This document shows, one piece after another, positions 42,701 through 63,250 of a stretch of 64,000 nucleotides of DNA. The notes beneath the pieces were generated by a model. The model had not been told where the DNA came from. It saw nothing but the letters and a program-made list of their open reading frames with translations, and did not search any database. The stretch's first letter is position 1. Every line of letters begins with the position of its first letter. Where the stretch lies: NCBI GenBank assembly GCA_000146465.1, contig CP001945.1. One strand, given 5' to 3'. A program made the position numbers and the translations under genes.

Positions 42701-43857
42701 TTAGGGAGATGTTTCTTAGGAAAAAAGAGAGAGAGGTAAAAAGCTACGAAAAAAACCTAAGAATCCAGAATCTAAAGATGGAGAGAATGGGTGCAAAGGT
42801 GAATTTCCTCAAGGATATAGAATCTGGTTTTGTTTCCAATGTTGTGGGATTATTTATCAACAACATAAGTGACTTCTCTTTGGAAATAGATGGGATGAAG
42901 GAAACATGCTTGTATACGACTTTCCAAGAGCTTGAAGATCTTCTGGCTTCTTTCTACTTATCTCAGCTTCAGAAAAATCTCTACAAGGTTCTTACGCACT
43001 TGGACTTTATGGGAAACATAGGAAGTTTCACCGAGTCTGTATCCATAGGAATTAAGGATCTTCTTACCGAGCCTTCCTTGAACTCCAATGTAGCTTGTGG
43101 AATCTTCAAGGGAGGAAAGAGTTTCTTGAAGAACACCATTTATGGTGTTTCTAACACAGTTGGAAAATTCTCTAAAAGCATAGGAACAAGTGCTAAGTTC
43201 ATTGGATGCAGTGCGGATCCTAAACACGAAAAATTCCGCCATTCCTATGCACGTGATATGCATCTTCTTATACCCCGGGCTAGACATTCAAAAGGTCCAA
43301 TGACATCTATACTCAAAGGAACAGGAAATCTTTTTGACTCGATAACGCGTGGAATGGTGGGGATAGCAACTTCTCCTGTGGAAGGAGCCTCAAATGGTGT
43401 TGCTGGTGTTGTGAAGGGATTGGGAAAAGGAGTCCTTGGTGCCTTTGCCGGACCGATCGCAGAAGTTGCCGACCTTGTAACTAATATTTCTGACACCATA
43501 AAGACGTCCATGAATGGAAGAGTCAAAAGGATCCAATATCCAAGGCCCGCAGGATTCCTTGGATGGTACGATGAGGGATTGAGCCAAGGCTTCTATATAT
43601 TTATGTCTATGGCCGGGAAAGTTCATGAAGAAGAAAGGTTTGTGGATGGGACATTTGGGGATTTTAACGGAAGATGCCAGCTGGTTTTGACAACAAGAAG
43701 ACTACTAATATCAGATACTACCACTATTCTTGACGTGTGCTTAGGAAGTATAGTTGTTGAAGGAGACGATCGAAAGTTAAAAATCGGAGAGTTCATCATG
43801 TCCATCGAAAGGCCCTCATTTGTTGCTTCCGTGAAGTCAATAATTGAAAGATGTTGA
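36736..43857 (+). CDS. VPS13: VPS13-family bridge-like lipid-transfer protein, reduced to 2373 aa.
   Basis: The N-terminal chorein-N motif KKILLRALNKFLGNYVENIDKHQFELGIFKGYVSVSNLRIKSSVIS...GTLRVLVPWKSF aligns with VPS13 ([43 protein letters not shown]...GKVTLQIPF). The single uninterrupted ORF is very long. Confidence 0.8.
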   Translation: MGSLFGSPMLKKILLRALNKFLGNYVENIDKHQFELGIFKGYVSVSNLRIKSSVISRLFEGRVVSNSIGTLRVLVPWKSFSRKPIEIYVKDVDIKLGKAGFCWCFLDEKLCTECVEYEKYEFMTKLDKLSVLSDAREDNSTLFKDLIAGDGFRVLIENVNVEYVSGASIALRVQKVEFNKKTKGEVKNMKIFDAVGIEVVGASKVLGPFDIYSKIKMLPKDINPRIEVSLNDFHVEVKQQIAEEILRGAREYAEDRVRWTLFRSYLEYREILRTAREMNLWKDQEDPASSDRSVAMEIWKRLIRLQKKAMESKGVVLEEIPGIISKIKEYREILGRSGLSFKEVERKKRCEREICLERLLKVKRSLSEVSEKKSWKNILSFMKEEANNKRTSMIIPATFSVGEATVVIIDEKHQGFKIVVPKTRVGVKDLLSPSRLDFKGDKWRLYFIDARLNERDPHSELISLLLDVRGTLIQDGAGLYVKGIAKEWKVLGYRRELPHCFEGFMRLVKRSYVPSYGLAAPRGKTRADFKVDIVSMESDLERFVKIEPSSRYGIECAGMVLSYVNDEINTKRAASLTISSSFVYRVNSVSKEREALSNKIETTVLLVDNVFYVKTSMVDLYAHGVYPNDFRGNGVVFPVGFVVPNFEVCSDAIRINGPDGRAELQRIKMSGNGGSIFDMEIFKGKVLDSNGKTMCRIPRMKIEARIGRALLLDVVYLKICGRARRIARLARGMTWMANGEVSTKVIARIKRIEGDIRCKGSILRIIVDEYFQGLAKSVRAVLNESIINIENFEAGEEFGWKSAVLTIRKEDLKNLDGFGRIFKKIGSRSSAFKASAGGLVIKLLNGGEIEIESLRIFRDEGGMIIYPFEVKVFNTGDSSTSADSRKREVEMCISKIEISDTKATIEGSIKGEINEETLIKIKDGIKEIPIPSGGSLETVVLLDISLSMVISGNPLKIACPLTLWQKADEYEITLQQIEIASGDGQNTNLFEVHAKGADGVLRLSVSKMEIHIEPFRLASILYPLVHGTGDTDFVKKVEVDIEEIFAKTKSIDGIRMRNVRYRDELLLQFSVLDEPGSKVAYKRVNGSESYLLSVIGGSYELSSLAALVSFCSSEYMQIYSKFGIQVSRARLHVLCMDLKVLLGDALFALRINLPIVYFDMEDLNSFKGRALCSLDVYDSNSMEFIPFIEENVLLARKYGTFLDVRTLTKLRILYLDEITSTIWSLFASEETGITMFGKPFRNKVSIRNITDTVLWVKTKRYAGRVGKGQFHEFDVDYDEHRIQIGKDEACALVYIVNSCSTSFVSEGKSFVIEVTYDGKLRGITITHVLSFLNLCDIELMGKMDYLDGSALELHMLPEFHHTIPQEKDFFLEIGMHGKYVSAGKINVSSAPKDATSTFGMICKLGLVEIGIDTVVRNAGSVSCVVIILYPIFEVMNRTASVLNLILSVGKDNTPGGESETQKKNIPLSVDRDCKEDIYGISFSELPLLYVQSLGSRATARAFENKASIEINSHYSGEIRKEQAEIISFFGRHTLAHRIRMVIYSPMVIINHLGNDIWINGARFGPGPSCSNRLKDIHSLAVGEYSIEESVEVGKKFTKAFILKKRGFKGHKTWKSHEGQEWSNEAIFGGFGPKTGIQPSCIRLLLEFGEDQGRRIIECKYTYLIRNQSQMRLLAVSEHVCYYVEPHEEVPLNTSTNGFYLFIADSVNIRSPRLSGVFIPLDIKIRKYFKLQGSDAILFSVSKVTDSGQHVFGIRTEKYWPYTIHNGIDVGLRFSQKYDTIEHYVEKGSVYRYAPDSLMLDPEILLCIEDQIIQVNLNEDQVLLVHGITVSISQGSTTRVVRVSRGEISSSECRICLGIVIDSLSISLVNKEGNEVLCSHIEGLEIGAECISREAGIPELMAHPKYVEFVIQGTAESIQVDNQSLFCAFPVVFHPLDKYLRIETERRNRKKLLVFDFTFGSSAQNVSVSNLYFKTEAFALNIEENLAKSIREMFLRKKEREVKSYEKNLRIQNLKMERMGAKVNFLKDIESGFVSNVVGLFINNISDFSLEIDGMKETCLYTTFQELEDLLASFYLSQLQKNLYKVLTHLDFMGNIGSFTESVSIGIKDLLTEPSLNSNVACGIFKGGKSFLKNTIYGVSNTVGKFSKSIGTSAKFIGCSADPKHEKFRHSYARDMHLLIPRARHSKGPMTSILKGTGNLFDSITRGMVGIATSPVEGASNGVAGVVKGLGKGVLGAFAGPIAEVADLVTNISDTIKTSMNGRVKRIQYPRPAGFLGWYDEGLSQGFYIFMSMAGKVHEEERFVDGTFGDFNGRCQLVLTTRRLLISDTTTILDVCLGSIVVEGDDRKLKIGEFIMSIERPSFVASVKSIIERC

Positions 43858-50052: not shown

Positions 50053-53000
50053 TTAATTCTCTTCCCACTCTTCCTCTCGATCCCGGTCTTTCCAGAACTT
50101 CGAAAAATGCCCAACTCTGCAAGATCCATCATAGAATCCCTGAGGAGCCCCTATTCTCCATGTGTATTTCAAGCTGTCATCGTAGAATGGTCTTGCAAAG
50201 TTGTAGTTCCACATCTCGGGAATAAGAAAAACCCCCATGTCTCCAGTCAGCACAAATTCCATCTCTTTCCAACCACATTCCTCTTTTTTCATCACCTTTA
50301 TCCTATCATCGATGAGTATGGCTAGTCCGTCAATTATTTTGTACCTTTCATGCAGGAGATCTACAGTTTGGAGGTTGTTTCCATTCATTACCACTCCAAC
50401 AATATTGGACTCAGGAGTAAATAACGAGGAGTGAATCACAGATAATGACGAAAATTGAGGAACAAGCCCAAAGGAGATCGGATCTCCCCCAACCACCAAT
50501 CCAAAGACTAAGACGTGGGGATCCATTATCTCCATGAACTTCCTGACGAGGTTCAAAGGAATCTTCAGGATTTTTCTTTCATCAACTTGGTCTAAGAATT
50601 CTGTTTTACAGTTTCCTTTCTCCAGCATCTCCAAAATCCATCTTTCAAGATCCCCACTTTTGCTCATTCTGTCCAGTTTCACATATCTGCTTCTCCATCC
50701 ATCACTACCTCCAAAAGACACATGTCCTGGCCTGTTGAACACCATTTTACTATTCTTTATCTCTGTGTCTATAACCTTTCCCTCTTCCTCTCGTCCCAAA
50801 CCCGCTTTAAACCCAAACACTATGTCTCTTATCTCATTCTGAGACAAACTAGAAGGCTCTATTCCATAAATAGTACAGTAACTTTCAACTATGAGATCCT
50901 TCAGCTCAATCTCCTTTTTTATCCATTCAGAGTCACTTATCTCAGGCCATATCTCATTAATTCCAAGATCCTTGACTCTTGTTTCATCAACATCCATTCC
51001 GTGCACCACAAGGAGAAGCCTGCAGAAATTCGTAAACCTGCTTGTTTCACGCCACTTCTCATATAGATTAATGCTTCGAACACATTTTTCTTTTTCGAAC
51101 CCTTTGAGTTTCACCAAATTAGAAAATGGTGGTATTGATAGACATGTTTTCACCGATATAGATGGGTGGTCTATACTAAAGTTCTCCATTGCATCCACCA
51201 TGTCTTCAGAGACAACAACACTTCTCTTCTTAAGCTCCTCACCCATCAAAAATATATCTTGGGCTGCAAGAAACCTTATCTGCCGGATCTTTTTGCTCTC
51301 TCCAGAGTAACTTTTGAAATACAGATTTCCACTTCCAGGATCAAAGATAAACAGCATCTTTTCCTTCTTAAGCAATGCCTTGACGTCAACCAGAAGCCCG
51401 GAGTTAAACATCTCCCCACTGTTATTAACCACCTCAACATCGGAAGTGTACAGCTGAAGTGCCTTCCTAAGCCTCTCCCGAAGCACATGAAGCATCGAAT
51501 TCTCCATCAAGATCTTCTCCATCGAGTCTCTTATCACAGTATTTAGCTCTCCATTCAGATTTCCATATGCACTCCATGTATTGTAACAAAGATCGAGAAC
51601 TATGATAAATCCATTCTGGACCGGATATCGAGTCTGAGGATCTCTAACACACTCAGCAAACCTTACCCTTGCATATTTACGGGAATTCCTTTTGTCATAG
51701 TCTCCCCATCTCAGCTGAACATCAATCCACAATCCATCACATCTCTCTCCATCTCCCTCCGTCTCTTCAGAAATACACATAGGAGACTGAACATAGAAAT
51801 CCCCCGACAGAAGGATGTCTGCACAGCTGCTTCCAAACCTGTAACTTTTCTTCCCGTGTACTTCCAGCCTCTTAGTATCACAGTACTTCTTAAACATATC
51901 ACACAAGTCCTTAACAACACTCTCATGGATTCTCTTCCACAGATGGTTTCGGAATATCTGAACAAACGAAATCTTCAACGTCGGTAGCTTTCCGTGCATA
52001 AACACTCCCGTTTGGTCCAATTGAACCTGATATCCAACATATACATTTCCCCTGTTGATAGTTGGTGACCACCACAAGATGAATCTTCTGTTGGGAACTT
52101 GGCTCAACCCCATCTTCTGGGCGTTTGTCAGACGTCTATACCCTCCAGCAACACTGTCCTCCCAAAACACCTTGCTGAAGCTTCTGAAATACGTCGCCCC
52201 AAACAGCGTGTGGTCTGCAATCCCTTCAAGCCCTCCAAGGACTTTTAAAACATCTGCTGTGAATCCCTCCATACTCCATAGCTTCCCATCATGCCTTGCA
52301 TCTGTAAACCAAAACCATTCGGGATTGCTTGAATATTTCTTAAACATGCTAATAATCCTAAATCCCCTGTCATACAGTAGCCATCTACTTCTTTGAAGAA
52401 GAGTACTCATTCGTGGAATCCCCTTTTCAGGTTCTATCTTTCCACTCCTCCCATACTCCGTCCACACTCTGCTTGACTCAGAAAACTCATCGTCCCATCG
52501 GGATGTATAGTCCAGAATCCCTGGAATGGTCTTATGCTTCTCTTCCTCCATGTCCGAAACATCTTCCTGAAAAAGCCGGACTCCTCCAGCACTTAGCATC
52601 CCTAGTCCTCCCATCTCCTTAGGTGCATAGAACATAACAGGTGGAAACCTCACCGGCATCTTCGAGTTTATTCCTTTCTTCACAACATTCTGTATCATAC
52701 ATTCAGCTTTTCTAAGCCTCTCCTCCAGCCCCTGAGTGTCACAGATGCACTCTCTGTAGTACATTGTAAACGAAAGAATCTGTGTATTCCATCTTGTTGC
52801 CACCTTGAGAAATGTGGCAGATCCACTCGTGTTCACAATATGCATTATATTACTTTCAAACATTTCTACACTCTTGTCACTCACAGCCAAGTTTGCATAC
52901 ATCCCATTCTCAAGCTTCCATGAGCTTCTTTCATGGATCTTCTTTGAAGAAATCATCACATCAATTCCCCCCATCGAGAACTTAACACCTGGGAATATAC

Positions 53001-56000
53001 TACATCCTCGGAATCTGATTCTCCCTAAAGAAGGTAATAGTCTCGTCGCAACCTCGGCATGAACACACTTCTCTAAAAGTTTCAGTCTCTCCCTGCCATT
53101 GCTACTATCAAATTCCTCAGTCTCTTCATCATAAAGATTCCCACAAATCCCATCGAAGTAGTTTCCTCTTCGATCTTTCATCACATCTTCAAACCATTCA
53201 GTTCCCTTTCCATAGTCAGAGAGTAAGGCGCTTTCTTCCTCTTTCTTTAGTTTAAAAAGGATGTAGACATCGTCCATATGCCTAAAGTACAGCTTTATGC
53301 TACTTTTCTCGTCCATGAAAACATCTTCTCCTAAAACACACAGGTCGATGATAAACGAATAAAACTTATATACAAACGCAGAAAGCTGAAATCCTTTGAT
53401 AAACCCAACATGGTTGGTGTACCTCATATCCTTGTAGAAAACTAAGCAGTTGTTTCTGCTTATGATGTAATCCGCCAAAGTAGGGTCCAAAACAAGCTTC
53501 AGCAGCTTCGAAAGGAGGTTGTTATCTATCATCTTCATAATCCCCGAGTATTTTCCCTCGTAAAGTACAACTCTTTCCCCATCTACTCCACTGAATGATG
53601 AAATTTTCTCGCATAAGTCCATCAGGGCCTTTAAGTCCATCTCGTCTCCAGGCTTGATAAACTCAGGGAAGATGTTGAGCCTCTCGGATTCGTAGAACAG
53701 GTATGCACAAAGAAATGCATCCACAAGCCTCTCCATGTACGATACATGGTAGTATTCAATTCCCCCGCTTCCATATCTCTTTAGAGTAACAGAAACCTCT
53801 TTGAACGATCTTTGAGTAAGCAATGACTTTTTTATCTTGAAAATGGTGTCGGCAGAGTCCTCCAGCGCCTTGTCGAAAAACTCGCATTCCTCGGCCGTTG
53901 CATTCTTCTTAAGCCTGTCCACTGCAATGCTCAAGAACTTCTCCTCATTCTTCTCAGGAAACAATATCTTCCCTGTTCCTTTGCTCCTGAAGTATTCCGC
54001 AGAAAGCTTGTAGATAGCAACAGCCTCTGCTGCTTTGAGAAACGGCTGGCTCAAATACTCCGCTTGCTCAGCCATCCGTTCCTTCATATATAGCCTTGTA
54101 ATCTTTCCAAGACGCTTCTTCTCTCCCTTTTTACTCTTCTCTCCCCCGTTAATCGCACTCTCAATATACCATCCAGACCTCAGCCGAACGTATCTGTCTA
54201 TTATCCCCTGCAATTCAAAAAGTTCCTTCTGATGCTTGACTCCTGCCATTTTCCCCTGCTCCTGTATATTCAACACAAAGTTATCTGAAAATGTAACCAC
54301 ACTCTGCTTAGAAGATATCGTTGTATTTCCCTCCCCCTCTTGGAGAGTATCAACCATAGGCCTGATAGCCTCCAGGTTTACAATCGTAGTCTCTGAAGTT
54401 CCTTTCAGGCCCTCTTGCTCAAGAGATAAAGAAGCACTTCTTCTTATTCCTAGTTCCTTGATGTGCTCATGTACAATATGGTAGGGAACATTTGCCTTCC
54501 AACATCTCCACGCTTCACTAAAATGCTGGAGAAGCCTCCTTACTTGTGTCGGATGGAGCACAGACGAAACTTCGGCCATAATCTGCCTCTTTAGTGCAAC
54601 ATCATATCCACTCTCGCTTCGTTGCTTCGATAGAGGCTTTGGATTATAGTCCCTTCCTTCCGCAATCCTTGTAACCAGCCCAGAAATATATCTTCCAAGC
54701 AACGGAATGTGTCCCCGGAACATAAAGCACCACGTCCTCCACTGCTCTCCCCATCCTTTAAATCCTATGTAATCCGAAAGCCTCTTCCATGACTTGCATT
54801 GCTTGATCTGCTTCATAAGCTTATACTTGTACCTGTATATTCCTGTCAGAACCCCAACATTGTTAAGCACATGATCTACATTCGCCATCAGTTCATATCC
54901 GTCAATGTTTCCTTGTCTAAACAGAACGTGGATATCCACAAGATGCTTCACAAGCTTAAGCATTTCTCTTGTTAGATGATAAGATGTTCCGACTCGGGAC
55001 TTCTTTCTTTCTTTTGTCGTCAGTTGCCGAATAGGCTTCAAATTGAAGTTCCAGTCAAGAATGAGATAGCTAAGCTTCTTCCTTCTCAACACTTCGCTAA
55101 GCATCCTGTGCCCTTGATACACCAATTGGAGCCCCGCCTCAACCCAGTCTATCTCTGTCCTTTGGAAATATCTTGTATTTTTCAGCTTCTTAAGAATGTG
55201 GCTAGGAGGCCTCTTCTTTGTCTTCTTCTCTGTGATCCTTGCATAGTTCCTGAGAAGGTTTCGGACCTTGGGACCCTCGTCCGTCCTTTCTCTCAAGCAC
55301 TCCCCTTTCAGCAATGGGATGTCGGCCGGATGTCTTTCCTTTTTTCTCCTGCCATCCTCTCTCTTCTCCCTTCTAAATGGACTTATAGCATCCAAATGAG
55401 TTTTTTCCAAAACTTGTACCCTTGTACTTCTGTTGTAAAGATAAGGATAAGCTATCCTTTCGAGCCCAGGCTCCCTCTCCATTATATTCACATCATTTCC
55501 ACTCCTCTCAGTAACATAAGGCCCATTCTCAAGCTGCACACCTACATGCCTGCTTATCAAGAATGCTTTGCAATTAAACAGATATCCCTCGTCCACATCT
55601 CTAAAGTCTTCCTTCCACTTTATGTTGTCTTGACTCCCAATAGCAGTTGGAACAGGGAGGCCAATTATACTTCCATAGTCCACTACTGGTTCGTCGTCAT
55701 CAAACACAGGGTATCTCAGAACACGTACAAGTCCTCTTTTTCTTTCCTCTGAAGAAAACAACATACTTGCATGGCTCCATCTATTCTTGTACTCTTCTAC
55801 ATCTACTCTCCTCTTCTCTGTGACAAAGGTCACCAGCCCAGAAACATGGTATACAACATCCACATATCTGATCGACTCCCATGGCATTGGCATCGACCTC
55901 ACAAGATTATGAAGTGCATACGGCATGTACCTCATTGCTCCCATGAAGGAAGGATGCATGTCTTTTGATGTCCTTATTATTCTTCGAAGATGTTCTGGCG

Positions 56001-56031
56001 GCATCCTTTCCTTTCTAACACTAGAAGGCAT
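50053..56031 (-). CDS. PRP8: Pre-mRNA-processing-splicing factor 8 (PRP8), reduced to 1992 aa.
   Basis: The N-terminus reads PEHLRRIIRTSKDMHPSFMGAMRYMPYALHNLVRSMPMPWESIRYVDVVYHVSGLVTFV, matching Prp8 (HLRKIIRDHGDM...[42 protein letters not shown]). A single long ORF is co-linear with the Prp8 RT-like, thumb, endonuclease-like, RNase H-like and Jab1/MPN regions. Confidence 0.95.
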   Translation of the reverse strand: MPSSVRKERMPPEHLRRIIRTSKDMHPSFMGAMRYMPYALHNLVRSMPMPWESIRYVDVVYHVSGLVTFVTEKRRVDVEEYKNRWSHASMLFSSEERKRGLVRVLRYPVFDDDEPVVDYGSIIGLPVPTAIGSQDNIKWKEDFRDVDEGYLFNCKAFLISRHVGVQLENGPYVTERSGNDVNIMEREPGLERIAYPYLYNRSTRVQVLEKTHLDAISPFRREKREDGRRKKERHPADIPLLKGECLRERTDEGPKVRNLLRNYARITEKKTKKRPPSHILKKLKNTRYFQRTEIDWVEAGLQLVYQGHRMLSEVLRRKKLSYLILDWNFNLKPIRQLTTKERKKSRVGTSYHLTREMLKLVKHLVDIHVLFRQGNIDGYELMANVDHVLNNVGVLTGIYRYKYKLMKQIKQCKSWKRLSDYIGFKGWGEQWRTWCFMFRGHIPLLGRYISGLVTRIAEGRDYNPKPLSKQRSESGYDVALKRQIMAEVSSVLHPTQVRRLLQHFSEAWRCWKANVPYHIVHEHIKELGIRRSASLSLEQEGLKGTSETTIVNLEAIRPMVDTLQEGEGNTTISSKQSVVTFSDNFVLNIQEQGKMAGVKHQKELFELQGIIDRYVRLRSGWYIESAINGGEKSKKGEKKRLGKITRLYMKERMAEQAEYLSQPFLKAAEAVAIYKLSAEYFRSKGTGKILFPEKNEEKFLSIAVDRLKKNATAEECEFFDKALEDSADTIFKIKKSLLTQRSFKEVSVTLKRYGSGGIEYYHVSYMERLVDAFLCAYLFYESERLNIFPEFIKPGDEMDLKALMDLCEKISSFSGVDGERVVLYEGKYSGIMKMIDNNLLSKLLKLVLDPTLADYIISRNNCLVFYKDMRYTNHVGFIKGFQLSAFVYKFYSFIIDLCVLGEDVFMDEKSSIKLYFRHMDDVYILFKLKKEEESALLSDYGKGTEWFEDVMKDRRGNYFDGICGNLYDEETEEFDSSNGRERLKLLEKCVHAEVATRLLPSLGRIRFRGCSIFPGVKFSMGGIDVMISSKKIHERSSWKLENGMYANLAVSDKSVEMFESNIMHIVNTSGSATFLKVATRWNTQILSFTMYYRECICDTQGLEERLRKAECMIQNVVKKGINSKMPVRFPPVMFYAPKEMGGLGMLSAGGVRLFQEDVSDMEEEKHKTIPGILDYTSRWDDEFSESSRVWTEYGRSGKIEPEKGIPRMSTLLQRSRWLLYDRGFRIISMFKKYSSNPEWFWFTDARHDGKLWSMEGFTADVLKVLGGLEGIADHTLFGATYFRSFSKVFWEDSVAGGYRRLTNAQKMGLSQVPNRRFILWWSPTINRGNVYVGYQVQLDQTGVFMHGKLPTLKISFVQIFRNHLWKRIHESVVKDLCDMFKKYCDTKRLEVHGKKSYRFGSSCADILLSGDFYVQSPMCISEETEGDGERCDGLWIDVQLRWGDYDKRNSRKYARVRFAECVRDPQTRYPVQNGFIIVLDLCYNTWSAYGNLNGELNTVIRDSMEKILMENSMLHVLRERLRKALQLYTSDVEVVNNSGEMFNSGLLVDVKALLKKEKMLFIFDPGSGNLYFKSYSGESKKIRQIRFLAAQDIFLMGEELKKRSVVVSEDMVDAMENFSIDHPSISVKTCLSIPPFSNLVKLKGFEKEKCVRSINLYEKWRETSRFTNFCRLLLVVHGMDVDETRVKDLGINEIWPEISDSEWIKKEIELKDLIVESYCTIYGIEPSSLSQNEIRDIVFGFKAGLGREEEGKVIDTEIKNSKMVFNRPGHVSFGGSDGWRSRYVKLDRMSKSGDLERWILEMLEKGNCKTEFLDQVDERKILKIPLNLVRKFMEIMDPHVLVFGLVVGGDPISFGLVPQFSSLSVIHSSLFTPESNIVGVVMNGNNLQTVDLLHERYKIIDGLAILIDDRIKVMKKEECGWKEMEFVLTGDMGVFLIPEMWNYNFARPFYDDSLKYTWRIGAPQGFYDGSCRVGHFSKFWKDRDREEEWEEN

Positions 56032-56121: not shown

Positions 56122-57159
56122 ATGGAGGCCAGGTCATTGTCGACAACAACAGAAAAGCTGGTTGTCTCCAGAGCAATAGATATATATGGAGTAGCAGACG
56201 AGGATTCGGTAACAAAGTACATCACAGCAATGTATGGGTACATCCACCCAAACAGATGGAAGACAATCTACCAGGAGGTGCTTGACACATGTGCAAAACA
56301 TGGATACTCGTCTCCTGTTGATTTCTGTGAGGACCTGAGACTTGATGTTGCAAGGAAGATGTACATGGAGAAGGCATTGCTCTATAACAGGCTTTTGGAG
56401 GGAGAGGAGGTGGAATGGCCTGAACAGCACATGGAACACGACTGGAACATTGGAGACATCGAGAAAATAGATGAGCTTTCCAAAGGGTCTGAGGACATTC
56501 TTGACAAGAGACTCCTGTATCCTACTGTAGACCCGCGAATCATAAAGCAGCATGTGGAGGCCATGAGTAAGTGGCAGAGTAGAGCTGAAGAAAGTCGAAA
56601 TGGAGTAGGCAAGGCCGAGGAAAAGAAAAAAGAGTATGGGATAGAGGACAAAGAAAGAAGAAGATTTTATCATAGAATGTCTAATGAAGAGAAGGAACTT
56701 GACGATTTCTTGGACAGAATAGAAGAAGAACACTACAACATGCCACAAAGTGGTGTTGCCCCAAACAGACTAAGAGAAAAATATCCCATCCTAAAGGCTT
56801 CTCCAATAGGAAGCGGATATCCGGGATTCCGAATGGAAGGATCTGATGTTTCTCTAGAAAACCAGTACAGAGCAGTTGTAAAGAAAATCCTGGGAAAAAC
56901 CATGCATGGGAGTAATGATAGGCAATGGAGACAGGAACTCCGAATTATCGTGCAATATCACATGAGAAGAATAGGAATGGTTAACGAGATTGAAAAGGTG
57001 AATGCATTGATAGACAGTAGCACTATGTCACACACGCTAATGAACATCTTGATGCTTCTCCAGGAGCTGGTCGAAAGGCCAAGAAACCAAGAGCTGGTCC
57101 AGGACTACCTATTTTTCAAAAAGGATATTCTTATGTTTGGTAATTACTACAGAAAATGA
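56122..57159 (+). CDS. Hypothetical 345-aa protein.
   Basis: Intact ORF divergent from PRP8 across a 90-bp spacer. It has a charged, coiled-coil middle region. No recognised motif. Confidence 0.45.
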   Translation: MEARSLSTTTEKLVVSRAIDIYGVADEDSVTKYITAMYGYIHPNRWKTIYQEVLDTCAKHGYSSPVDFCEDLRLDVARKMYMEKALLYNRLLEGEEVEWPEQHMEHDWNIGDIEKIDELSKGSEDILDKRLLYPTVDPRIIKQHVEAMSKWQSRAEESRNGVGKAEEKKKEYGIEDKERRRFYHRMSNEEKELDDFLDRIEEEHYNMPQSGVAPNRLREKYPILKASPIGSGYPGFRMEGSDVSLENQYRAVVKKILGKTMHGSNDRQWRQELRIIVQYHMRRIGMVNEIEKVNALIDSSTMSHTLMNILMLLQELVERPRNQELVQDYLFFKKDILMFGNYYRK

Positions 57160-57233: not shown

Positions 57234-57959
57234 TCATTTGACTATGGTATCCACTATGGCTCTTCTTCGAGCCTCCAAGTCCTGGTCTCCACTGAGGTCA
57301 AACACGCTTTCAATCACAGTCATCTCGACATTGGTCGTTTTCACTCCTGCAACACACATCCAATCATTGATGGCAACCCCTCCCCCAATGCAAGGGCTTC
57401 CTCCATTGACTGTCCCTGCAATCACATTCACCTCGAGAAGCTCACTAAGCTCCTTTTGGCACTCTTGACTCGTGAGGGGATGAACAAGCATTCCTTGGTT
57501 GTTCAATGCACCAAAGGTTCCCACAAGTGGCTCTTGGCCTATATTGTGTCGGTAGACAGGAACCTGTAGAACATCTTTGATAATGTCTTCCGACTCTCCA
57601 TCCAGATCTCCATGTATGATTGCAACATGGTCGTTGCAGAGAACTACATTTCCAAGGGCATTCAGTCTCTCTTCAATCCGCCTCACTACAACATTCTCCG
57701 GCAATGTGTTTCTTATGTGCATAATCTCCTGGTCTGTTATCGTGTGTGGCACAAGTAATCCATGTCTGTTTCCCCTGCATTGCGACCCTACACTTCTAAT
57801 GCTATTGATCGTTGTTTCCACAATCGGGATTGCAACAGTCTCCTGCAGAAACTTGAGTACATTGTTTGACTGACTTCTTCCAACCACACAGTATGTGTTG
57901 GTAAGTGATATGTATGCTCCTATCTCAGAGCTTCCTTCAAAATCTATTCTGTACGACAT
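57234..57959 (-). CDS. TIF6: Eukaryotic translation initiation factor 6 (eIF6).
   Basis: From the internal Met, the sequence [26 protein letters not shown]...[58 protein letters not shown] matches eIF6 (FENSNEIGVFSKLTNTYCLV...[43 protein letters not shown]). An AAAAATT..GGGGCCC motif lies immediately upstream. Confidence 0.9.
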   Translation of the reverse strand: [241 protein letters not shown]

Positions 57960-58021
57960 GGGCCCCTGAGAATTTTTCATTTTCCACTCTCCAGATAACT
58001 TCTTCCAGAGTCTACCTCTTG

Positions 58022-58267
58022 TCAGCTTTCGGCTATACTTTTAATGTTGTTACATCTAATTGTAACCTCCCCAACCATTGCTTCGCTCTCTCCATCCTTC
58101 TCTATGCATTTGTCCAGAAGTATATTGAAGTAGTTGTCCGACGTGACAAGAACCCCTTCATAGACCTGCCCCCACTTTAACGTAACAGAAACATTCTTGT
58201 CTCTTATCCTGTGAAGAAATTGCTTCGGATTCTCCCTGGAAGGCTTTCCGCCATAGGACTCTTCCAT
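58022..58267 (-). CDS. Sm-fold protein, SmF/LSm6-like.
   Basis: The sequence PKQFLHRIRDKNVSVTLKWGQVYEGVLVTSDNYFNILLDKCIE...MVGEVTIRCNNI matches SmF ([43 protein letters not shown]...LGEVLIRCNNV). Confidence 0.75.
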   Translation of the reverse strand: MEESYGGKPSRENPKQFLHRIRDKNVSVTLKWGQVYEGVLVTSDNYFNILLDKCIEKDGESEAMVGEVTIRCNNIKSIAES

Positions 58268-58365: not shown

Positions 58366-58935
58366 TTAGATTCGAGATCCTTTCTTCGGAGCAAACATGG
58401 CTTTGGTTGTATGCAACTTGGCAAGTCCTATGATGACATACATAATCGGAATTGCAAACATAATGTATAGACCATTCCGAATTCTTTTTGCCTCTGCAAT
58501 ATTGTTTTCTTGGATTGTTTTCAGACGTGTATTCGTCCTGTACAAAGACATGAGTTTGGCCTCCAAATCAAGAAACAAATTCTTAATTGCCAGGTTGTCA
58601 TTGTCAACATCTCCAGACGACATGACATCTGTGTATATGCTTATAGAAGCCTTCTCAAACCCATCATTGAAGACTTCAATTCGATAGGCCCCAGGAGTTG
58701 TGTACTTGGCATTAACACTCTCTATAAGCTCTTCCTTGAACTCACTGTCATCGTCAACCTCTCCAGGCTTGATTATCTTGTAGTACACAAGCGCGTCGGA
58801 ATATTGGTTCAACTGGATTGTAAGTTCCACATCCTTGCTATCAAGAATTGCCCAGTACACCTCCTTGTCTCCAGGCCTTAGGATCTTCTGGATCCTAGAA
58901 CACATTGCAAAAGAAACAATCCAGAAGAATAGCAT
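58366..58935 (-). CDS. p24/emp24/gp25L-family cargo receptor (GOLD domain).
   Basis: The architecture is signal peptide, then a GOLD-like beta domain, a coiled coil, and a single transmembrane helix (GLYIMFAIPIMYVIIGLAKLHTTKAMF) with a short basic cytosolic tail. Confidence 0.7.
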   Translation of the reverse strand: MLFFWIVSFAMCSRIQKILRPGDKEVYWAILDSKDVELTIQLNQYSDALVYYKIIKPGEVDDDSEFKEELIESVNAKYTTPGAYRIEVFNDGFEKASISIYTDVMSSGDVDNDNLAIKNLFLDLEAKLMSLYRTNTRLKTIQENNIAEAKRIRNGLYIMFAIPIMYVIIGLAKLHTTKAMFAPKKGSRI

Positions 58936-58997
58936 GGGTTAGGTCTTCTCTTTGCTTTTTCAAACCAAGCCTCTAGTTGGCTAAAACAAAACACCCC

Positions 58998-59552
58998 ATG
59001 GGATCAGGTGCCAGCACAATCCCAGGCGATACAGAAGAAGATGCCAGACAATTCTCCCACTTCCCCTCAAAAGATATCCAGGAATGGTCTTCCTCGTTCA
59101 GATCAGAATATCCTGGCGGGCTTATGACACCGAAGGATTTGGAGGAAATCTTCAGGAGTTTTTTCCCCTTTGGATCTCCCACAAACTTCTCTAGGAGGCT
59201 TTTCGAAACAATCAACATAGGCCAGACCACAGCCATCGATTTTCACGAACTTCTGATTGCATACAGTATACTGATAAAGGGAAGCGACCATGAAAAACTA
59301 CGGTGGATATTTAGGTTTTATGACAAGGACAATGATGGTCTTGTATCTAAGGAAGAAATGGTCGAGGTTGTCCAGTATCTAGCAGATATGACATCGCACA
59401 CCCTCGATGTCTCCATAGATTCAGAAGGAATAGTAGAGGAGATATTCACTTCTGTTGGAGGTTCCAAGAGCTTCCTTACCTTCGAGGACTTCAAGGCACT
59501 TTCAACAAAGAATGAAAAGCTATTTAAGATGCTAACCCCATTCTCCGAATAA
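58998..59552 (+). CDS. N-myristoylated EF-hand calcium sensor of the NCS-1/frequenin/recoverin family.
   Basis: From the Met, MGSGAST forms an N-myristoylation consensus (MG...S). The sequences EWSSSFRSEYPGGLMTPKDLEEIFRSFFPFGSPTNFSRRLFETINIGQTTAIDFHELLIAYS and EKLRWIFRFYDKDNDGLVSKEEMVEVV align with NCS-1 ([62 protein letters not shown]...[27 protein letters not shown]). Confidence 0.8.
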   Translation: MGSGASTIPGDTEEDARQFSHFPSKDIQEWSSSFRSEYPGGLMTPKDLEEIFRSFFPFGSPTNFSRRLFETINIGQTTAIDFHELLIAYSILIKGSDHEKLRWIFRFYDKDNDGLVSKEEMVEVVQYLADMTSHTLDVSIDSEGIVEEIFTSVGGSKSFLTFEDFKALSTKNEKLFKMLTPFSE

Positions 59553-59617: not shown

Positions 59618-60856
59618 TTATTTCAGTTTGATCTTCTTGGAGTCCTTTGAGTCGTCATAGAAGTCCGGCTTCACCTCGTACTTAAGTTTTTTCACCGGCT
59701 TCTTCTCCGATCTGCTTCTGGCCTCCAAGTCCTTAATTCTTCTCTTGATCGCCTCCTGCATCCTTATGCCAGCCTCGTTCGTTACCTTCTCCCCATAGGA
59801 ATCGATTCTGGCTGCTATTGCAATCTTAGACGCCAAGCTCCTAGCTATCTTTCCTTTATGTTGAGAATCCACTTGTCCTAGGAGAGAACATCCGTAGATC
59901 ATACCATACTTCGGAGTATTTGTCTTTGACTTCAATGCTTGGAACAAGGCTTTCTCTGCCCCCATGATCTGGATCGATGACCCAGGCATCTTAGCAAGAT
60001 TTGAAAGAGACCCTGCTTTGCTTATCATCTTTGCTCCTATCACTTCCCCAATCAGAGACGTTATGTTTGGGGCAAGATCCTCCATCTTCACCCGTATGTA
60101 TTCCACAAGCTCATCTCGGAATTCAAAGCTCTTTAATACGCTTTTTGCATCCTCCAATATATTCAGAACATCCGATGAGTCCATTGCAATCCCCATGCTT
60201 GTCTTTGCAAGACTTACAATCCTTTCCCACTCATCTTTGGCTATTTCCTTGAGCTCTTCCTTCTTCTCCTCAATACTCTCCTTTCTCCCAATCGCCACAA
60301 CAAGTCTTAAATATTTCCTGTTATTGTCTGTCACAGAAGACAGTTCGGGGAAGTGGAACCCATACCATTCCTTGAGTCTCATGCAATGGAGGTTGATGTC
60401 TCTGTCCATATCCTCCAGAAGTGAGACAGACTGAATCACCATGGTGTCAATCTTCTCGGGCACAATCTTAACCTTTTCCATTGATATCTTGTGTGCTATG
60501 CACAGGATCCTTTCCGAATATTCCCTCCCACTCATCCCAAAATACTTGTGGACATTGGATCTTATCAGCCTCTGGACATCATCATTCAAGTATACAACCT
60601 TTCTCAAAAACTTCTTCGATAAAGGCTCCACCAGTTTCTGGTCATCCACAGCCAAGACCTCTTTGTCCTTAACCTCTGCAAGCTTCATAAACCTCTCCAG
60701 ATTGCTCGGAACTTCCCCCTTGATCAGCAGTCCAGAAGACTCTAGTGCTTCGTCAATACTCTCAAATTTGTACGTCTCGACAAGTCGTGGCTCTTCAGAC
60801 AGATCTGTCTTGTCGAAAAGTCCATACCCAACAACAGTCTCCACCAAGTAAATCAT
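59618..60856 (-). CDS. Box C/D snoRNP protein of the Nop56/Nop58 (Nop5) family.
   Basis: The sequences MIYLVETVVGYGLFD, KIDTMVIQSVSLLEDMDRDINLHCMRLKEWYGFHFPEL and AGSLSNLAKMPGSSIQIMGAEKALFQALKSKTNTPKYGMIYGCSLLGQ...GKIARSLASKIAIAARID carry the diagnostic Nop-domain motifs. A C-terminal lysine-rich tail follows. Whether this is Nop56 or Nop58 is not resolved. Confidence 0.85.
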   Translation of the reverse strand: MIYLVETVVGYGLFDKTDLSEEPRLVETYKFESIDEALESSGLLIKGEVPSNLERFMKLAEVKDKEVLAVDDQKLVEPLSKKFLRKVVYLNDDVQRLIRSNVHKYFGMSGREYSERILCIAHKISMEKVKIVPEKIDTMVIQSVSLLEDMDRDINLHCMRLKEWYGFHFPELSSVTDNNRKYLRLVVAIGRKESIEEKKEELKEIAKDEWERIVSLAKTSMGIAMDSSDVLNILEDAKSVLKSFEFRDELVEYIRVKMEDLAPNITSLIGEVIGAKMISKAGSLSNLAKMPGSSIQIMGAEKALFQALKSKTNTPKYGMIYGCSLLGQVDSQHKGKIARSLASKIAIAARIDSYGEKVTNEAGIRMQEAIKRRIKDLEARSRSEKKPVKKLKYEVKPDFYDDSKDSKKIKLK

Positions 60857-60904
60857 TTCAAACGGTCGAAAAAAATAGAAAAAATAGAAATCCATTTCCA
60901 GATC

Positions 60905-61762
60905 TTAAAAAGATTTGTCCATGTCACAGGCTCTGCTATCTGCCTTGATGTCCTCAGGTGGCATGTCTATCTTCTCCATAGAGATGTTTTCCTTCCTAAT
61001 CTTCACTCCGTACTTCAAGCTTCCAAGAGTGTTGACTCGGAGACTTCCGTACCCTCCTATCTTCCTAAGCTCCAGAACCCCATTGTAGTTTGGACAGAAG
61101 CAGCTGAACATGTTCGAGTCAAACATCCCAACCGTATCAAAATACAGGCTTAAGCTTGTGTTTGCCATGAAGAACCCAGGAATCGAAACCATGCATACAT
61201 GGCCATTAGCCCTTACAGCTCTCTTGAGCTCAAAGAGAAACTTTGCCATCTCCTCTTCACCCAGTCCAGAAAGTTTCCAAACAGGAGATCCCAACGAGAA
61301 TATGGCTATCCTCAATTCCTTTTCCTTTCTTGCTATGTCCAGAATGCTTTTCAACGTTGCATCCTCTCCAGAAAGCAAGATTCCTTCGAATCTCCTTTTT
61401 TTCGAGAGGTTGAACTTGAACAAAGGTCTTGCTAGAGATAGCTTGGTGTATCTCCATGCAATTACCATTTTGTCTTCATCCTCCTTCTCGGTAAATGATC
61501 CAGTACCGTATATCTCCACATTCCGGCCTTCCTTCATAACTGCCATCATGTTCTCTTGGTTGGAAGCTCCTTCTGAAAGAAAAACCTTCAGTATTGTCGA
61601 ATGAATCTGAGAATTTTCATCCTCAAGCAAGAGAATGGATGTTCCTCTTGTAAAGCACTCTCCTAGTACTGTGTCAAACCCGGATATTCCTGTAGATAGA
61701 TGTTCTATTCTCTTATATCCTGTGCTTTTTACAAATGACTCCATGCAGGGGCATATTGTCAT
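60905..61762 (-). CDS. ELP4: Elongator complex subunit Elp4 (RecA/KaiC-like, PAXNEB family).
   Basis: The sequences TGISGFDTVLGECFTRGTSILLLED, KMVIAWRYTKL and RIAIFSLGSPVWK correspond to Elp4 ([26 protein letters not shown] ... KMKIAWRYQLL ... RIGIQNLGSPLWG). Confidence 0.6.
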   Translation of the reverse strand: MTICPCMESFVKSTGYKRIEHLSTGISGFDTVLGECFTRGTSILLLEDENSQIHSTILKVFLSEGASNQENMMAVMKEGRNVEIYGTGSFTEKEDEDKMVIAWRYTKLSLARPLFKFNLSKKRRFEGILLSGEDATLKSILDIARKEKELRIAIFSLGSPVWKLSGLGEEEMAKFLFELKRAVRANGHVCMVSIPGFFMANTSLSLYFDTVGMFDSNMFSCFCPNYNGVLELRKIGGYGSLRVNTLGSLKYGVKIRKENISMEKIDMPPEDIKADSRACDMDKSF

Positions 61763-61825: not shown

Positions 61826-63250
61826 ATGTGCGGAATACTTCTCTCAGAAGAAGAAAACACTGCATACGAGAGGGTGGCCTCTCTTATAAGAAACAGAGGA
61901 GGAGACTATTACAACAAGGTCTATATCGATGGTATGGTGGCAATCGCCTCGGTTCTTTCGATAAGGGATTCTGTTTGCCAGCCTGTGGAAGGAAACGGGT
62001 ATCTGTTTCTTTACAACGGTGAAATCTATAACAATGAAAGAAGCGACACACTGTCTATCAAAAATATAATAGATAAGGTCTTGTGCGAGAGTGGGAAAGC
62101 AGTTTTGGATGGTAGATGTATAGTAGATAAGATTTATGCAGAAATCAACAGACATGAAAACGAAATGGCAATGATATTGATGATTGGAAGCCATGTGTAC
62201 TTCTTTAAGGACGACATAGGGAGAAGGAGCTTGGGATACACACTGGATCCGTTCTGTGTCTCATCCGTGGAGTATGATGAGGAGATCAACCCCATGGCTA
62301 TATACTCCTACGACAGGTCTACAAGAAAGCTGAGCGAATGGCTAAAAGACAGCCAAATTGTTAAAAGGTACATGACAATGGGAGATGCAATATTAAAGCG
62401 TCTCAGCAACGAGAAGTACTCGAAGAAGTATCGATACTTAGCAAAGCATCTGTCCTTGCAGAATGTAGGAAATCATGAGGCAAAGCTTGAGGATGTCGAT
62501 AGTGCAGTTGAAGAGTTTAACAAGATCTTCAGAAGGTCTATAGAAAGAAGAATTAGTGGTGGAAACATCTGTGTATTCTTTAGTGGGGGAGTGGACTCGA
62601 TGCTTGTGGCTGTTTTCCTCCACTATGCAGCAGATCTTCGCCAGAAGATTTATTTGATAAACACATCGTTTGGGAAATCATGGGACAGAGAGGCTGGGAA
62701 GAAAGGGTTTGAAAGCCTTTGCACAATGTTCAAGGAAAGGTCTTTTGTCTTTGTTGCCAACAACATCGGAGTAGAGGAGGTTAGGGCTGCAAAAGAACAT
62801 ATCTACAGACTGATCCATCCAAAAGACGGACGCATGGATTTCAACATAGGAGCAACATTGTTTTTCTCAGCAAAAGAGTCGAGAAAGTACAGTAGGATTG
62901 CATATTTGGGATCAGGGGCAGATGAAATGTTTGGAGGATACCACAGGTACAGGGGAGAAGGCTTTAGAGAGGAGATGCTCTTTGATCTTTTCACAATCTC
63001 GCACCACAACCTCTGTAGAGATGACAGGGCTGTTTCTGACTGCCAGGTTGAGTGTAGGTTCCCATTTCTGGACTCGGAGTTGGTGGGATATTCCCTGAAG
63101 ATAGGGAATAATGTAGTTGCAATGGATGGAGAAAAGAAGTTTATCTTGAGAGAGACCTTGAGAAGAAACGGACTTGAATGTGTGTCTGGAGTTCCGAAGA
63201 AGGCAATGCAATATGGGAGTGGAATCTTCAAGATGGAAGGGAAGATATAG
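61826..63250 (+). CDS. Asparagine synthetase (glutamine-hydrolysing) family protein, possibly ASNSD1-like.
   Basis: The N-terminal Ntn class-II amidotransferase start is MCGILL, Cys2 being the nucleophile after Met removal. The PP-loop ATP pyrophosphatase motif is SGGVDSMLVAVF. Start is taken at the MCGI Met; the ORF track begins 30 nt upstream. Confidence 0.7.
   Translation: MCGILLSEEENTAYERVASLIRNRGGDYYNKVYIDGMVAIASVLSIRDSVCQPVEGNGYLFLYNGEIYNNERSDTLSIKNIIDKVLCESGKAVLDGRCIVDKIYAEINRHENEMAMILMIGSHVYFFKDDIGRRSLGYTLDPFCVSSVEYDEEINPMAIYSYDRSTRKLSEWLKDSQIVKRYMTMGDAILKRLSNEKYSKKYRYLAKHLSLQNVGNHEAKLEDVDSAVEEFNKIFRRSIERRISGGNICVFFSGGVDSMLVAVFLHYAADLRQKIYLINTSFGKSWDREAGKKGFESLCTMFKERSFVFVANNIGVEEVRAAKEHIYRLIHPKDGRMDFNIGATLFFSAKESRKYSRIAYLGSGADEMFGGYHRYRGEGFREEMLFDLFTISHHNLCRDDRAVSDCQVECRFPFLDSELVGYSLKIGNNVVAMDGEKKFILRETLRRNGLECVSGVPKKAMQYGSGIFKMEGKI

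Follow-up and report, generated by a model that had tools for sequence, protein, structure and literature searches.

NCS-1 (frequenin), known from human and rat structures (PDB 1g8i, 5aeq and 9gu6), carries three canonical Ca2+ loops behind a dead first EF-hand, and the Saccharomyces cerevisiae protein Frq1 (PDB 1fpw and 2ju0) is an essential regulatory subunit of the PI 4-kinase Pik1. Regulation of Pik1 is not the sole fungal precedent, since Schizosaccharomyces pombe can live without its Ncs1, a protein with roles in sporulation and in tolerance of Ca2+. Co-expression of Frq1 keeps Pik1 intact, Frq1 acting as a stabilising subunit, and myristoylation of Frq1 is dispensable in yeast, as frq1-G2A complements frq1-delta (PMC8101487). 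NCS proteins use one groove for many targets, and four residues of the NCS-1 groove that are important in vivo (W30, L89, W103 and V125) contact Pik1 in Frq1 complexes (PMC3765893). Other members of the family also have fewer working EF-hands: in recoverin (PDB 1iku and 4m2o), EF2 and EF3 are active and both are needed for the Ca2+-myristoyl switch, and KChIP1 (PDB 2i2r and 1s6c) has fewer active EF-hands than NCS-1, the KChIPs being metazoan Kv4-channel subunits with variable N-termini. Calcineurin B is likewise a myristoylated regulatory subunit with four EF-hands and is without the NCS signatures.

For the Microsporidia, we found no experimental paper on the function of any NCS protein in the literature, nor any paper on microsporidian PI4K, PI4P, NMT, frequenin or NCS, and PMC2078597, PMC3218828, PMC7143254, PMC9332396 and PMC10759460 held nothing usable on these topics. 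The one trace is a transcriptome table for Nosema ceranae, in which the orthologue, a partial model of 61 aa, is listed among the “stage-specific” genes at 20 d.p.i. with an FPKM of 1258; validation in the same study found its “stage-specific” genes expressed at all stages (PMC9409478).

Here, we investigated one NCS-family gene of Encephalitozoon intestinalis ATCC 50506 within a stretch of 64,000 nucleotides of contig CP001945.1 (assembly GCA_000146465.1), which we call the window. An earlier note on this DNA, made from its letters alone, had read the gene as an N-myristoylated calcium sensor of the NCS-1/frequenin type and had likened it to Frq1.

Methods

Family members were sought with phmmer among all PDB sequences, and an exhaustive profile search was made against 1.84 billion representatives. 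The Frq1 reference sequence aligned to PDB 1fpw over all 190 residues (430 bits), and the human NCS-1 and S. pombe Ncs1 references came from the same search output. For the loop test the NCS-1 loops served as the ruler, and a loop passed if it had 12 residues with D at position 1, D/N/S at position 3, D/N/S at position 5 and E/D at position 12. The fold was modelled with AlphaFold2, with 20 microsporidian sequences as input, and the model was compared with PDB structures by Foldseek.

Results

Gene and genomic context

The gene is an uninterrupted ORF from ATG to TAA whose 184-aa product begins MGSGASTIPG (Table 1), exactly as the earlier note had claimed in its coordinates and its probable start, MGSGAST. 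A bacterial-style ORF list starts the frame further upstream, at a TTG (position 58977), a start codon of no relevance to a eukaryotic gene. No earlier ATG lies in frame with this one, which has a G at +4 and stands in the context aaaacaaaacaCCCC followed directly by ATGGGA. Genes of Encephalitozoon cuniculi have a CCC-like start signal and 5'UTRs of <7 nt (PMC2803860). The CCCC run adjoins the ATG as a signal of the Encephalitozoon type and supports position 58998 as the true start and hence Gly2 as the mature N-terminus, and Met-Gly is a credible predicted N-terminus.

Table 1 Features of the NCS-family gene and of its neighbours in the window
Feature	Position	Strand	Remarks
PRP8	50053-56031	-	
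eIF6	57234-57980	-	
LSm protein	58022-58267	-	
Divergent neighbour, deposited as “putative vesicle transport v-SNARE”	58366-58935	-	62 bp from the NCS-family gene
Spacer of 62 bp between the NCS-family gene and the divergent neighbour	58936..58997	.	From the sequence
CCCC run directly 5' of the ATG, after an A-rich stretch	58994..58997	+	From the sequence; motif according to PMC2803860
NCS-family CDS, intron-less and complete	58998..59552	+	184 aa plus TAA; equals the deposited E. intestinalis ATCC 50506 protein
MGSGAST, residues 1-7, N-myristoylation consensus	58998..59018	+	Gly2, small uncharged residue 3, Ser6, no Pro7
EF1 loop, residues 36-47, SEYPGGLMTPKD	59103..59138	+	Degenerate as in all NCS proteins; from the alignment
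FFPFG, residues 55-59, NCS signature segment	59160..59174	+	Lines the N-lobe hydrophobic groove; positions as in NCS-1 and Frq1
EF2 loop, residues 73-84, NIGQTTAIDFHE	59214..59249	+	Non-canonical: Asn at 1, Gly at 3, Thr at 6
EF3 loop, residues 109-120, DKDNDGLVSKEE	59322..59357	+	Only canonical Ca2+ loop (D1, D3, D5, G6, E12)
EF4 loop remnant, residues 154-164, GGSKSFLTFED	59457..59489	+	11 residues, one-residue deletion
Nop56/58-type protein	59618-60895	-	
PAXNEB/Elp4	60905-61762	-	
Asparagine synthase	61826-63250	+	

A chance ORF is ruled out by the deposition of exactly this protein, by its microsporidian orthologues and by matches to Pfam EF-hand models above the cut-offs. The identical protein is listed in NCBI/UniRef as “recoverin-like calcium-binding protein” of E. 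intestinalis ATCC 50506, and database entries for other microsporidian orthologues carry the name “neuronal calcium sensor 1”; neither the gene nor its assignment to this family is new, as both are already public. The exact protein was also found on 5 contigs, and a Logan contig has the same local gene order (eIF6, LSm, a 189-aa gene and the NCS-family gene).

The genes flanking the NCS-family gene are housekeeping genes. For the product of the divergent neighbour, no Pfam or PDB sequence match was found. Its model (pLDDT 75) shows a beta-sandwich with a single long helix after it, and its best fold matches are the p24/TMED GOLD domains 5gu5 and 7rrm_A (E 3e-5 to 4e-5); judged by this model, a p24 cargo receptor would be more likely than the deposited v-SNARE. 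As the genome is so compact, the adjacency of the two genes is no evidence of a common function.

Family membership and predicted fold

Hippocalcin (E 3.5e-27, 98.7 bits) and NCS-1 (E 4.4e-27, 98.3 bits) led the phmmer matches, followed by fly Frq2 (E 5.7e-26), KChIP1 (E 2e-25), S. pombe Ncs1 (E 2.6e-25), yeast Frq1 (E 2.8e-22), recoverin (E ~6e-19), the GCAPs (E ~1e-16), and calcineurin B and calmodulin (E 1e-8 to 1e-7). The AlphaFold2 model (pLDDT 85.8, pTM 0.80) has 10 helices, and its best PDB matches are all structures of NCS-1, frequenin or Frq2 (TM 0.81-0.83, ~30% identity), with 0.82-0.83 for human/rat NCS-1. KChIP1 (TM 0.80), neurocalcin and hippocalcin come next, within a range of TM 0.76-0.83 that includes NCS-1 and Frq2, and recoverin reaches TM 0.73. 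The protein is thus modelled with the compact, two-lobe NCS fold of four EF-hands. Its place in the NCS/recoverin family, which the earlier note had read from the letters, is almost certain given phmmer E-values of 3.5e-27 to 6e-19 for family members and a predicted fold that matches NCS-1; the search with EF-hand models that the note had proposed also gave Pfam EF-hand matches that pass the cut-offs.

We consider it very improbable that the protein lies outside the NCS family, as an EF-hand protein of the calcineurin B type or a generic one resembling calmodulin. Calcineurin B shares the N-myristoylation and the four EF-hands and does match weakly (E ~1e-8), but NCS proteins outscore it by about 60 bits (E 1e-27 vs 1e-8), all top structural matches are NCS proteins, and both FFPFG and the xPxG form of EF1 are NCS-specific signatures. 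Calcineurin B is not the closest match, and one canonical loop stands against the four expected of it, while a generic calmodulin is ruled out on scores.

N-myristoylation signal

The N-terminus passes the myristoylation pattern test (MGxxxS/T). All 17 microsporidia share M1, G2 and S6 with the human, S. cerevisiae and S. pombe proteins, and residues 3-5 and 7-10 vary; invariance amid such freely varying neighbours indicates that selection acts on the signal itself. With a positive pattern, invariant G2 and S6 and a CCC motif that abuts the ATG, the claim of a consensus N-myristoylation signal stands, and the protein is likely to be myristoylated. In the metagenomic models P0018, P0023, P0036 and P0041, upstream extensions bury an internal MG(N/A)xxS, and the starts of these four models were probably mis-called.

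EF-hand loops

EF3 is the only loop that passes the test in all 17 of 17 microsporidian orthologues, whereas EF2, EF3 and EF4 pass in the human, S. cerevisiae and S. pombe proteins. Pfam EF-hand_1 found three stretches in the controls NCS-1 and Frq1 (82-89 bits) and one each in the proteins of E. intestinalis, Vairimorpha necatrix and Edhazardia (29-38 bits); EF3 scored 34 bits over residues 101-125. Among EF2-EF4 we therefore count one canonical loop, rather than the two or three of NCS proteins or the EF2+EF3+EF4 set of Frq1 and NCS-1.

The loops differ in what has become of them. EF1 keeps Pro39 and Gly41 of the CPxG signature and has Tyr in place of Cys (Tyr/Phe across the clade), a variant predicted to have the same consequence as the NCS CPxG, namely that EF1 is unable to bind Ca2+. 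In the EF2 region, where NCS-1 and Frq1 have an EF-hand_1 stretch, no such Pfam stretch was found, and the replacement motif T-I-N-I-[SG] is invariant among the microsporidian orthologues. The acidic/polar ligands at positions 1, 3 and 5 of EF4 are lost, and this loop is non-canonical in every microsporidian orthologue examined. D109, D111, D113, G114 and E120 of EF3 are invariant in the microsporidian orthologues despite an overall divergence of about 50%. On balance, these loop sequences favour EF3 as the only site that binds Ca2+ with high affinity.

Two EF-hand loops had been quoted in the earlier note: DKDNDGLVSKEE is real and canonical (EF3), while KLRW (residues 100-103) lies in the helix entering EF3, and the plural “loops” was overstated. 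As evidence against a calcium sensor, the same note had named a protein in which no loop keeps any Ca2+-coordinating residue; this is not the case here, because EF3 is intact. The retention of EF3 alone, together with the high divergence, tempers both the label “calcium sensor” and the analogy with Frq1.

Target groove

The FFPFG segment is present as described and occupies the same positions as in NCS-1. By alignment mapping, the groove residues W30, F34, F55, F56, F58, L101, W103, Y108 and V125 are kept, as are I152 and F169 (I149 and F165 in the E. intestinalis protein). Conservative changes affect F48 (to L), Y52 (to F), F85 (to L) and L89 (to Y, and to F in other microsporidia), and two positions have turned polar, L97 (to D; D or S) and M155 (to S). 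The NCS-type hydrophobic groove is broadly intact by this mapping and differs in part from the Pik1-binding surface; several of the altered residues line the Pik1 groove of Frq1 (F48L, F85L, L89Y/F, L97D/S and M155S), which speaks against a role of the Frq1 type.

Conservation and subfamily position

Identity to human NCS-1, S. cerevisiae Frq1 and S. pombe Ncs1 amounts to 28-29% in the joint alignment and to 27-29% in its trimmed form, and against human NCS-1 yeast Frq1 scores 252 bits and the E. intestinalis protein 98 bits. What had been called a well-conserved NCS fold is conserved as a fold, but not as a sequence. With NCS-1, its best structural and joint best sequence match, the protein shares the length class, the MGxxxS N-terminus, FFPFG, W30, W103, E120 and the dead EF1. 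It differs from NCS-1 in sequence (29-30% identity), in having EF3 as its sole canonical loop, in lacking three residues of the EF3-EF4 linker and one of the EF4 loop, and in a C-terminal tail without the “..LYDGLV” ending. Frq1, the presumed orthologue on taxonomic grounds, is a weaker match than the animal proteins (E 2.8e-22). The comparison with it that had been suggested bears out a common fold and N-terminal signal for myristoylation, along with most hydrophobic residues of the groove, but not the sequence (27-28% identity), the groove positions named above, or the EF-hands, of which EF2 and EF4 are non-canonical in the E. intestinalis protein. Recoverin belongs to the same family and is more distant (E ~6e-19), and its switch requires an EF2 that is non-canonical here; for the KChIPs, E. 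intestinalis offers no such channel context.

The protein is equally identical (~29%) to hippocalcin and to NCS-1, with equal bit scores. In the profile search, a tier of microsporidian-type sequences at >=150 bits is followed by generic NCS proteins, the best non-microsporidian matches being vertebrate NCS-1 (138 bits), a hippocalcin-like protein (137) and fungal NCS-1 (135). A neighbour-joining tree supports the microsporidian clade with 90% bootstrap and places it adjoining the NCS-1/Frq1 clade, with a joining node of <50%. Orthology to Frq1/NCS-1, as opposed to the hippocalcin/VILIP-type subfamily, is plausible from these comparisons, and Frq1 orthology is the parsimonious reading since fungi have, to our knowledge, a single NCS gene. 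Two metagenomic sequences (P0070 and P0106) combine a canonical EF2 with a degenerate EF4 and a Frq1-like C-terminus; being 29-30% identical to the E. intestinalis protein, they are no closer to it than Frq1 is and were rejected as bridging intermediates.

Among the matches listed, microsporidian orthologues are 45-86% identical and come from at least 10 named genera, including Encephalitozoon, Ordospora, Vairimorpha, Hamiltosporidium, Tubulinosema, Edhazardia, Antonospora, Enteropsectra and Anncaliia, with a core, reaching from FFPFG through EF3, in which conservation is very strong. The retention in a reduced genome on which the earlier note had remarked is confirmed by these genera and was already known from published genome annotation.

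Discussion

The explanation that we consider best, at a confidence close to but short of even, is that of a lipid-anchored NCS protein with EF3 as its one site, which binds a partner in its groove and regulates it, the partner most likely being Pik1. The N-myristoylated protein would be anchored to endomembranes and bind one Ca2+ (or Mg2+) at EF3, and its groove would clamp amphipathic helices of the target, as in Frq1 and NCS-1. By analogy with the presumed fungal orthologue Frq1, the most likely target would be the Golgi type III-beta PI 4-kinase (Pik1), which would be stabilised or activated and would thereby supply PI4P for secretory traffic. Such a protein, its EF2 and EF4 being disabled, would probably be a constitutive or low-cooperativity regulatory subunit more than a steep Ca2+ switch. 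Pik1 itself is a tentative choice of target, proposed by analogy and held with distinctly less than even confidence. The Frq1-Pik1 analogy is a reasonable hypothesis for this protein. E. cuniculi is probably annotated with PI 4-kinase homologues, a point to which we give no weight; within the 64-kb window, the PI-kinase catalytic motif “DRH..N” was absent from all six-frame ORFs of >=100 aa.

A Ca2+-insensitive structural subunit, in which EF3 is permanently filled with metal (Ca2+ or Mg2+), EF2 and EF4 have lost their function and the protein serves as a constitutive myristoylated adaptor or chaperone, seems to us unlikely. The single canonical loop left in the whole phylum is in keeping with it, the invariant EF2 motif TINI[SG] suggests a fixed structural role, and yeast Frq1 sets the example of a subunit that stabilises Pik1 (PMC8101487). 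The invariance of all EF3 ligands, on the other hand, is equally expected of a working sensor site, and structural and regulatory binding at EF3 are inseparable by sequence because both predict invariant ligands. We give a similarly low probability to an NCS Ca2+ sensor whose target is something other than a PI 4-kinase, such as a Ca2+ channel or transporter or a trafficking or germination factor, and whose role would lie in the homeostasis of Ca2+ or in activating spores, as implied by the earlier note's idea of a germination regulator. Such a target would be compatible with the equal subfamily scores for hippocalcin and NCS-1 and the joining node of <50%, with a groove that departs from that of Frq1 at five positions (L89Y/F, L97D, M155S, F48L and F85L) and with the many targets that one groove serves in NCS proteins (PMC3765893). 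The late listing of the fragmentary N. ceranae orthologue (PMC9409478) also fits, but that datum comes from the 61-aa partial model in a study whose “stage-specific” genes are expressed at all stages. No candidate target was identified for such a sensor, and a role in germination is speculation, a matter of pure inference.

Returning to the groove-binding regulator that we prefer, a wider reading concerns the history of the family. The Microsporidia may have converted a Frq1/NCS-1 orthologue into a one-site NCS protein, with a shortened EF4, an EF2 carrying the invariant T-I-N-I-[SG], and an EF3, a myristoylation signal and a groove under strong selection; we regard this as possible yet doubtful. 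If true, it would mean an NCS protein that works with a single Ca2+ site, which could be a locked, constitutive subunit of the Golgi PI 4-kinase or, alternatively, a re-tuned sensor of low cooperativity that relays Ca2+ signals to the biogenesis of polar-tube or secretory membranes or to germination.

As an identification, the finding restates the database annotation of an otherwise ordinary gene. What it adds is that, across the phylum, EF2 and EF4 have degenerated, two of the usual three Ca2+ sites, and this weakens a simple reading as a “calcium sensor”. As one of the conserved core genes still present after extreme reduction of the genome, the gene presumably encodes something indispensable. 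Spore firing in this parasite depends on Ca2+, and candidates for a Ca2+-responsive regulator are very few; a myristoylated NCS protein is among them. If it pairs with a Golgi PI 4-kinase, the two would make up a minimal module for PI4P production and might offer a drug target.

Genomic neighbourhood of the NCS gene

The divergently transcribed neighbour of the NCS-family gene in E. intestinalis gave no sequence match in either Pfam or PDB. Its AF2 model (pLDDT 75) consists of a 7-strand beta-sandwich that is followed by a single long C-terminal helix, and the closest structural matches of this model are the GOLD domains of p24gamma2 and TMED1 (E 3e-5 to 4e-5). The gene probably encodes a cargo receptor of the p24/TMED type and not the SNARE that its deposited name suggests.

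The ORF situated between PRP8 and eIF6 had no Pfam matches even at E<=10, and it is also carried by the Logan contig that reproduces the local gene order, where it is called as a 340-aa gene. The N-terminus of the 2,373-aa ORF resembles, as judged by eye, the N-terminal motif of chorein/VPS13. This ORF also opens with MG, as does the NCS protein.

Coordinates of genes and ORFs discussed in the text
Feature	Sequence	Coordinates	Strand	Length	Remarks
ORF	Window (CP001945.1)	36736-43857	+	2,373 aa	N-terminus MGSLFGSPML...
ORF between PRP8 and eIF6	Window (CP001945.1)	56122-57159	+	345 aa	
Divergent neighbour of the NCS gene	Window (CP001945.1)	58366-58935	-	189 aa	Deposited name: 'putative vesicle transport v-SNARE protein'
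P0070 gene	L002	2078-2647			

Orthologues and metagenomic relatives

The orthologue in Nosema (Vairimorpha) ceranae, AAJ76_1720005146, has been reported as a 'stage-specific' transcript at 20 d.p.i. with an FPKM of 1258 (PMC9409478, Table 3). This partial gene model comprises 61 aa and is therefore truncated, since the full-length orthologue in other assemblies (P0017) has 184 aa. In four of the gene models of orthologues from metagenomes (P0018, P0023, P0036, and P0041), an internal MG(N/A)xxS is preceded by 2-85 additional residues at the N-terminus, and the start codons of these models have probably been mis-called, which would mask the conserved myristoylation signal.

The best-scoring proteins of the NCS-profile search were mostly giant proteins of 1,600-3,000 aa (P0025-P0031 and others), in which NCS-like or EF-hand-pair modules are strung together in long arrays, with 7-14 distinct profile matches per protein. 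Because their scores are sums over repeats, their high rank does not signify close kinship.

Two metagenomic NCS proteins, P0070 and P0106, retain a canonical EF2, have a degenerate EF4, and end in a C-terminus like that of Frq1 (..Y[ND]G[LI]V). The contig encoding P0070 is very compact and without introns, with spacers of 45-100 bp, and a gene for a TPT transporter adjoins the P0070 gene. Neither protein is nearer to the E. intestinalis NCS protein than Frq1 is. P0070 and P0106 may come from early-branching relatives, in which case EF4 may have been lost earlier than EF2.
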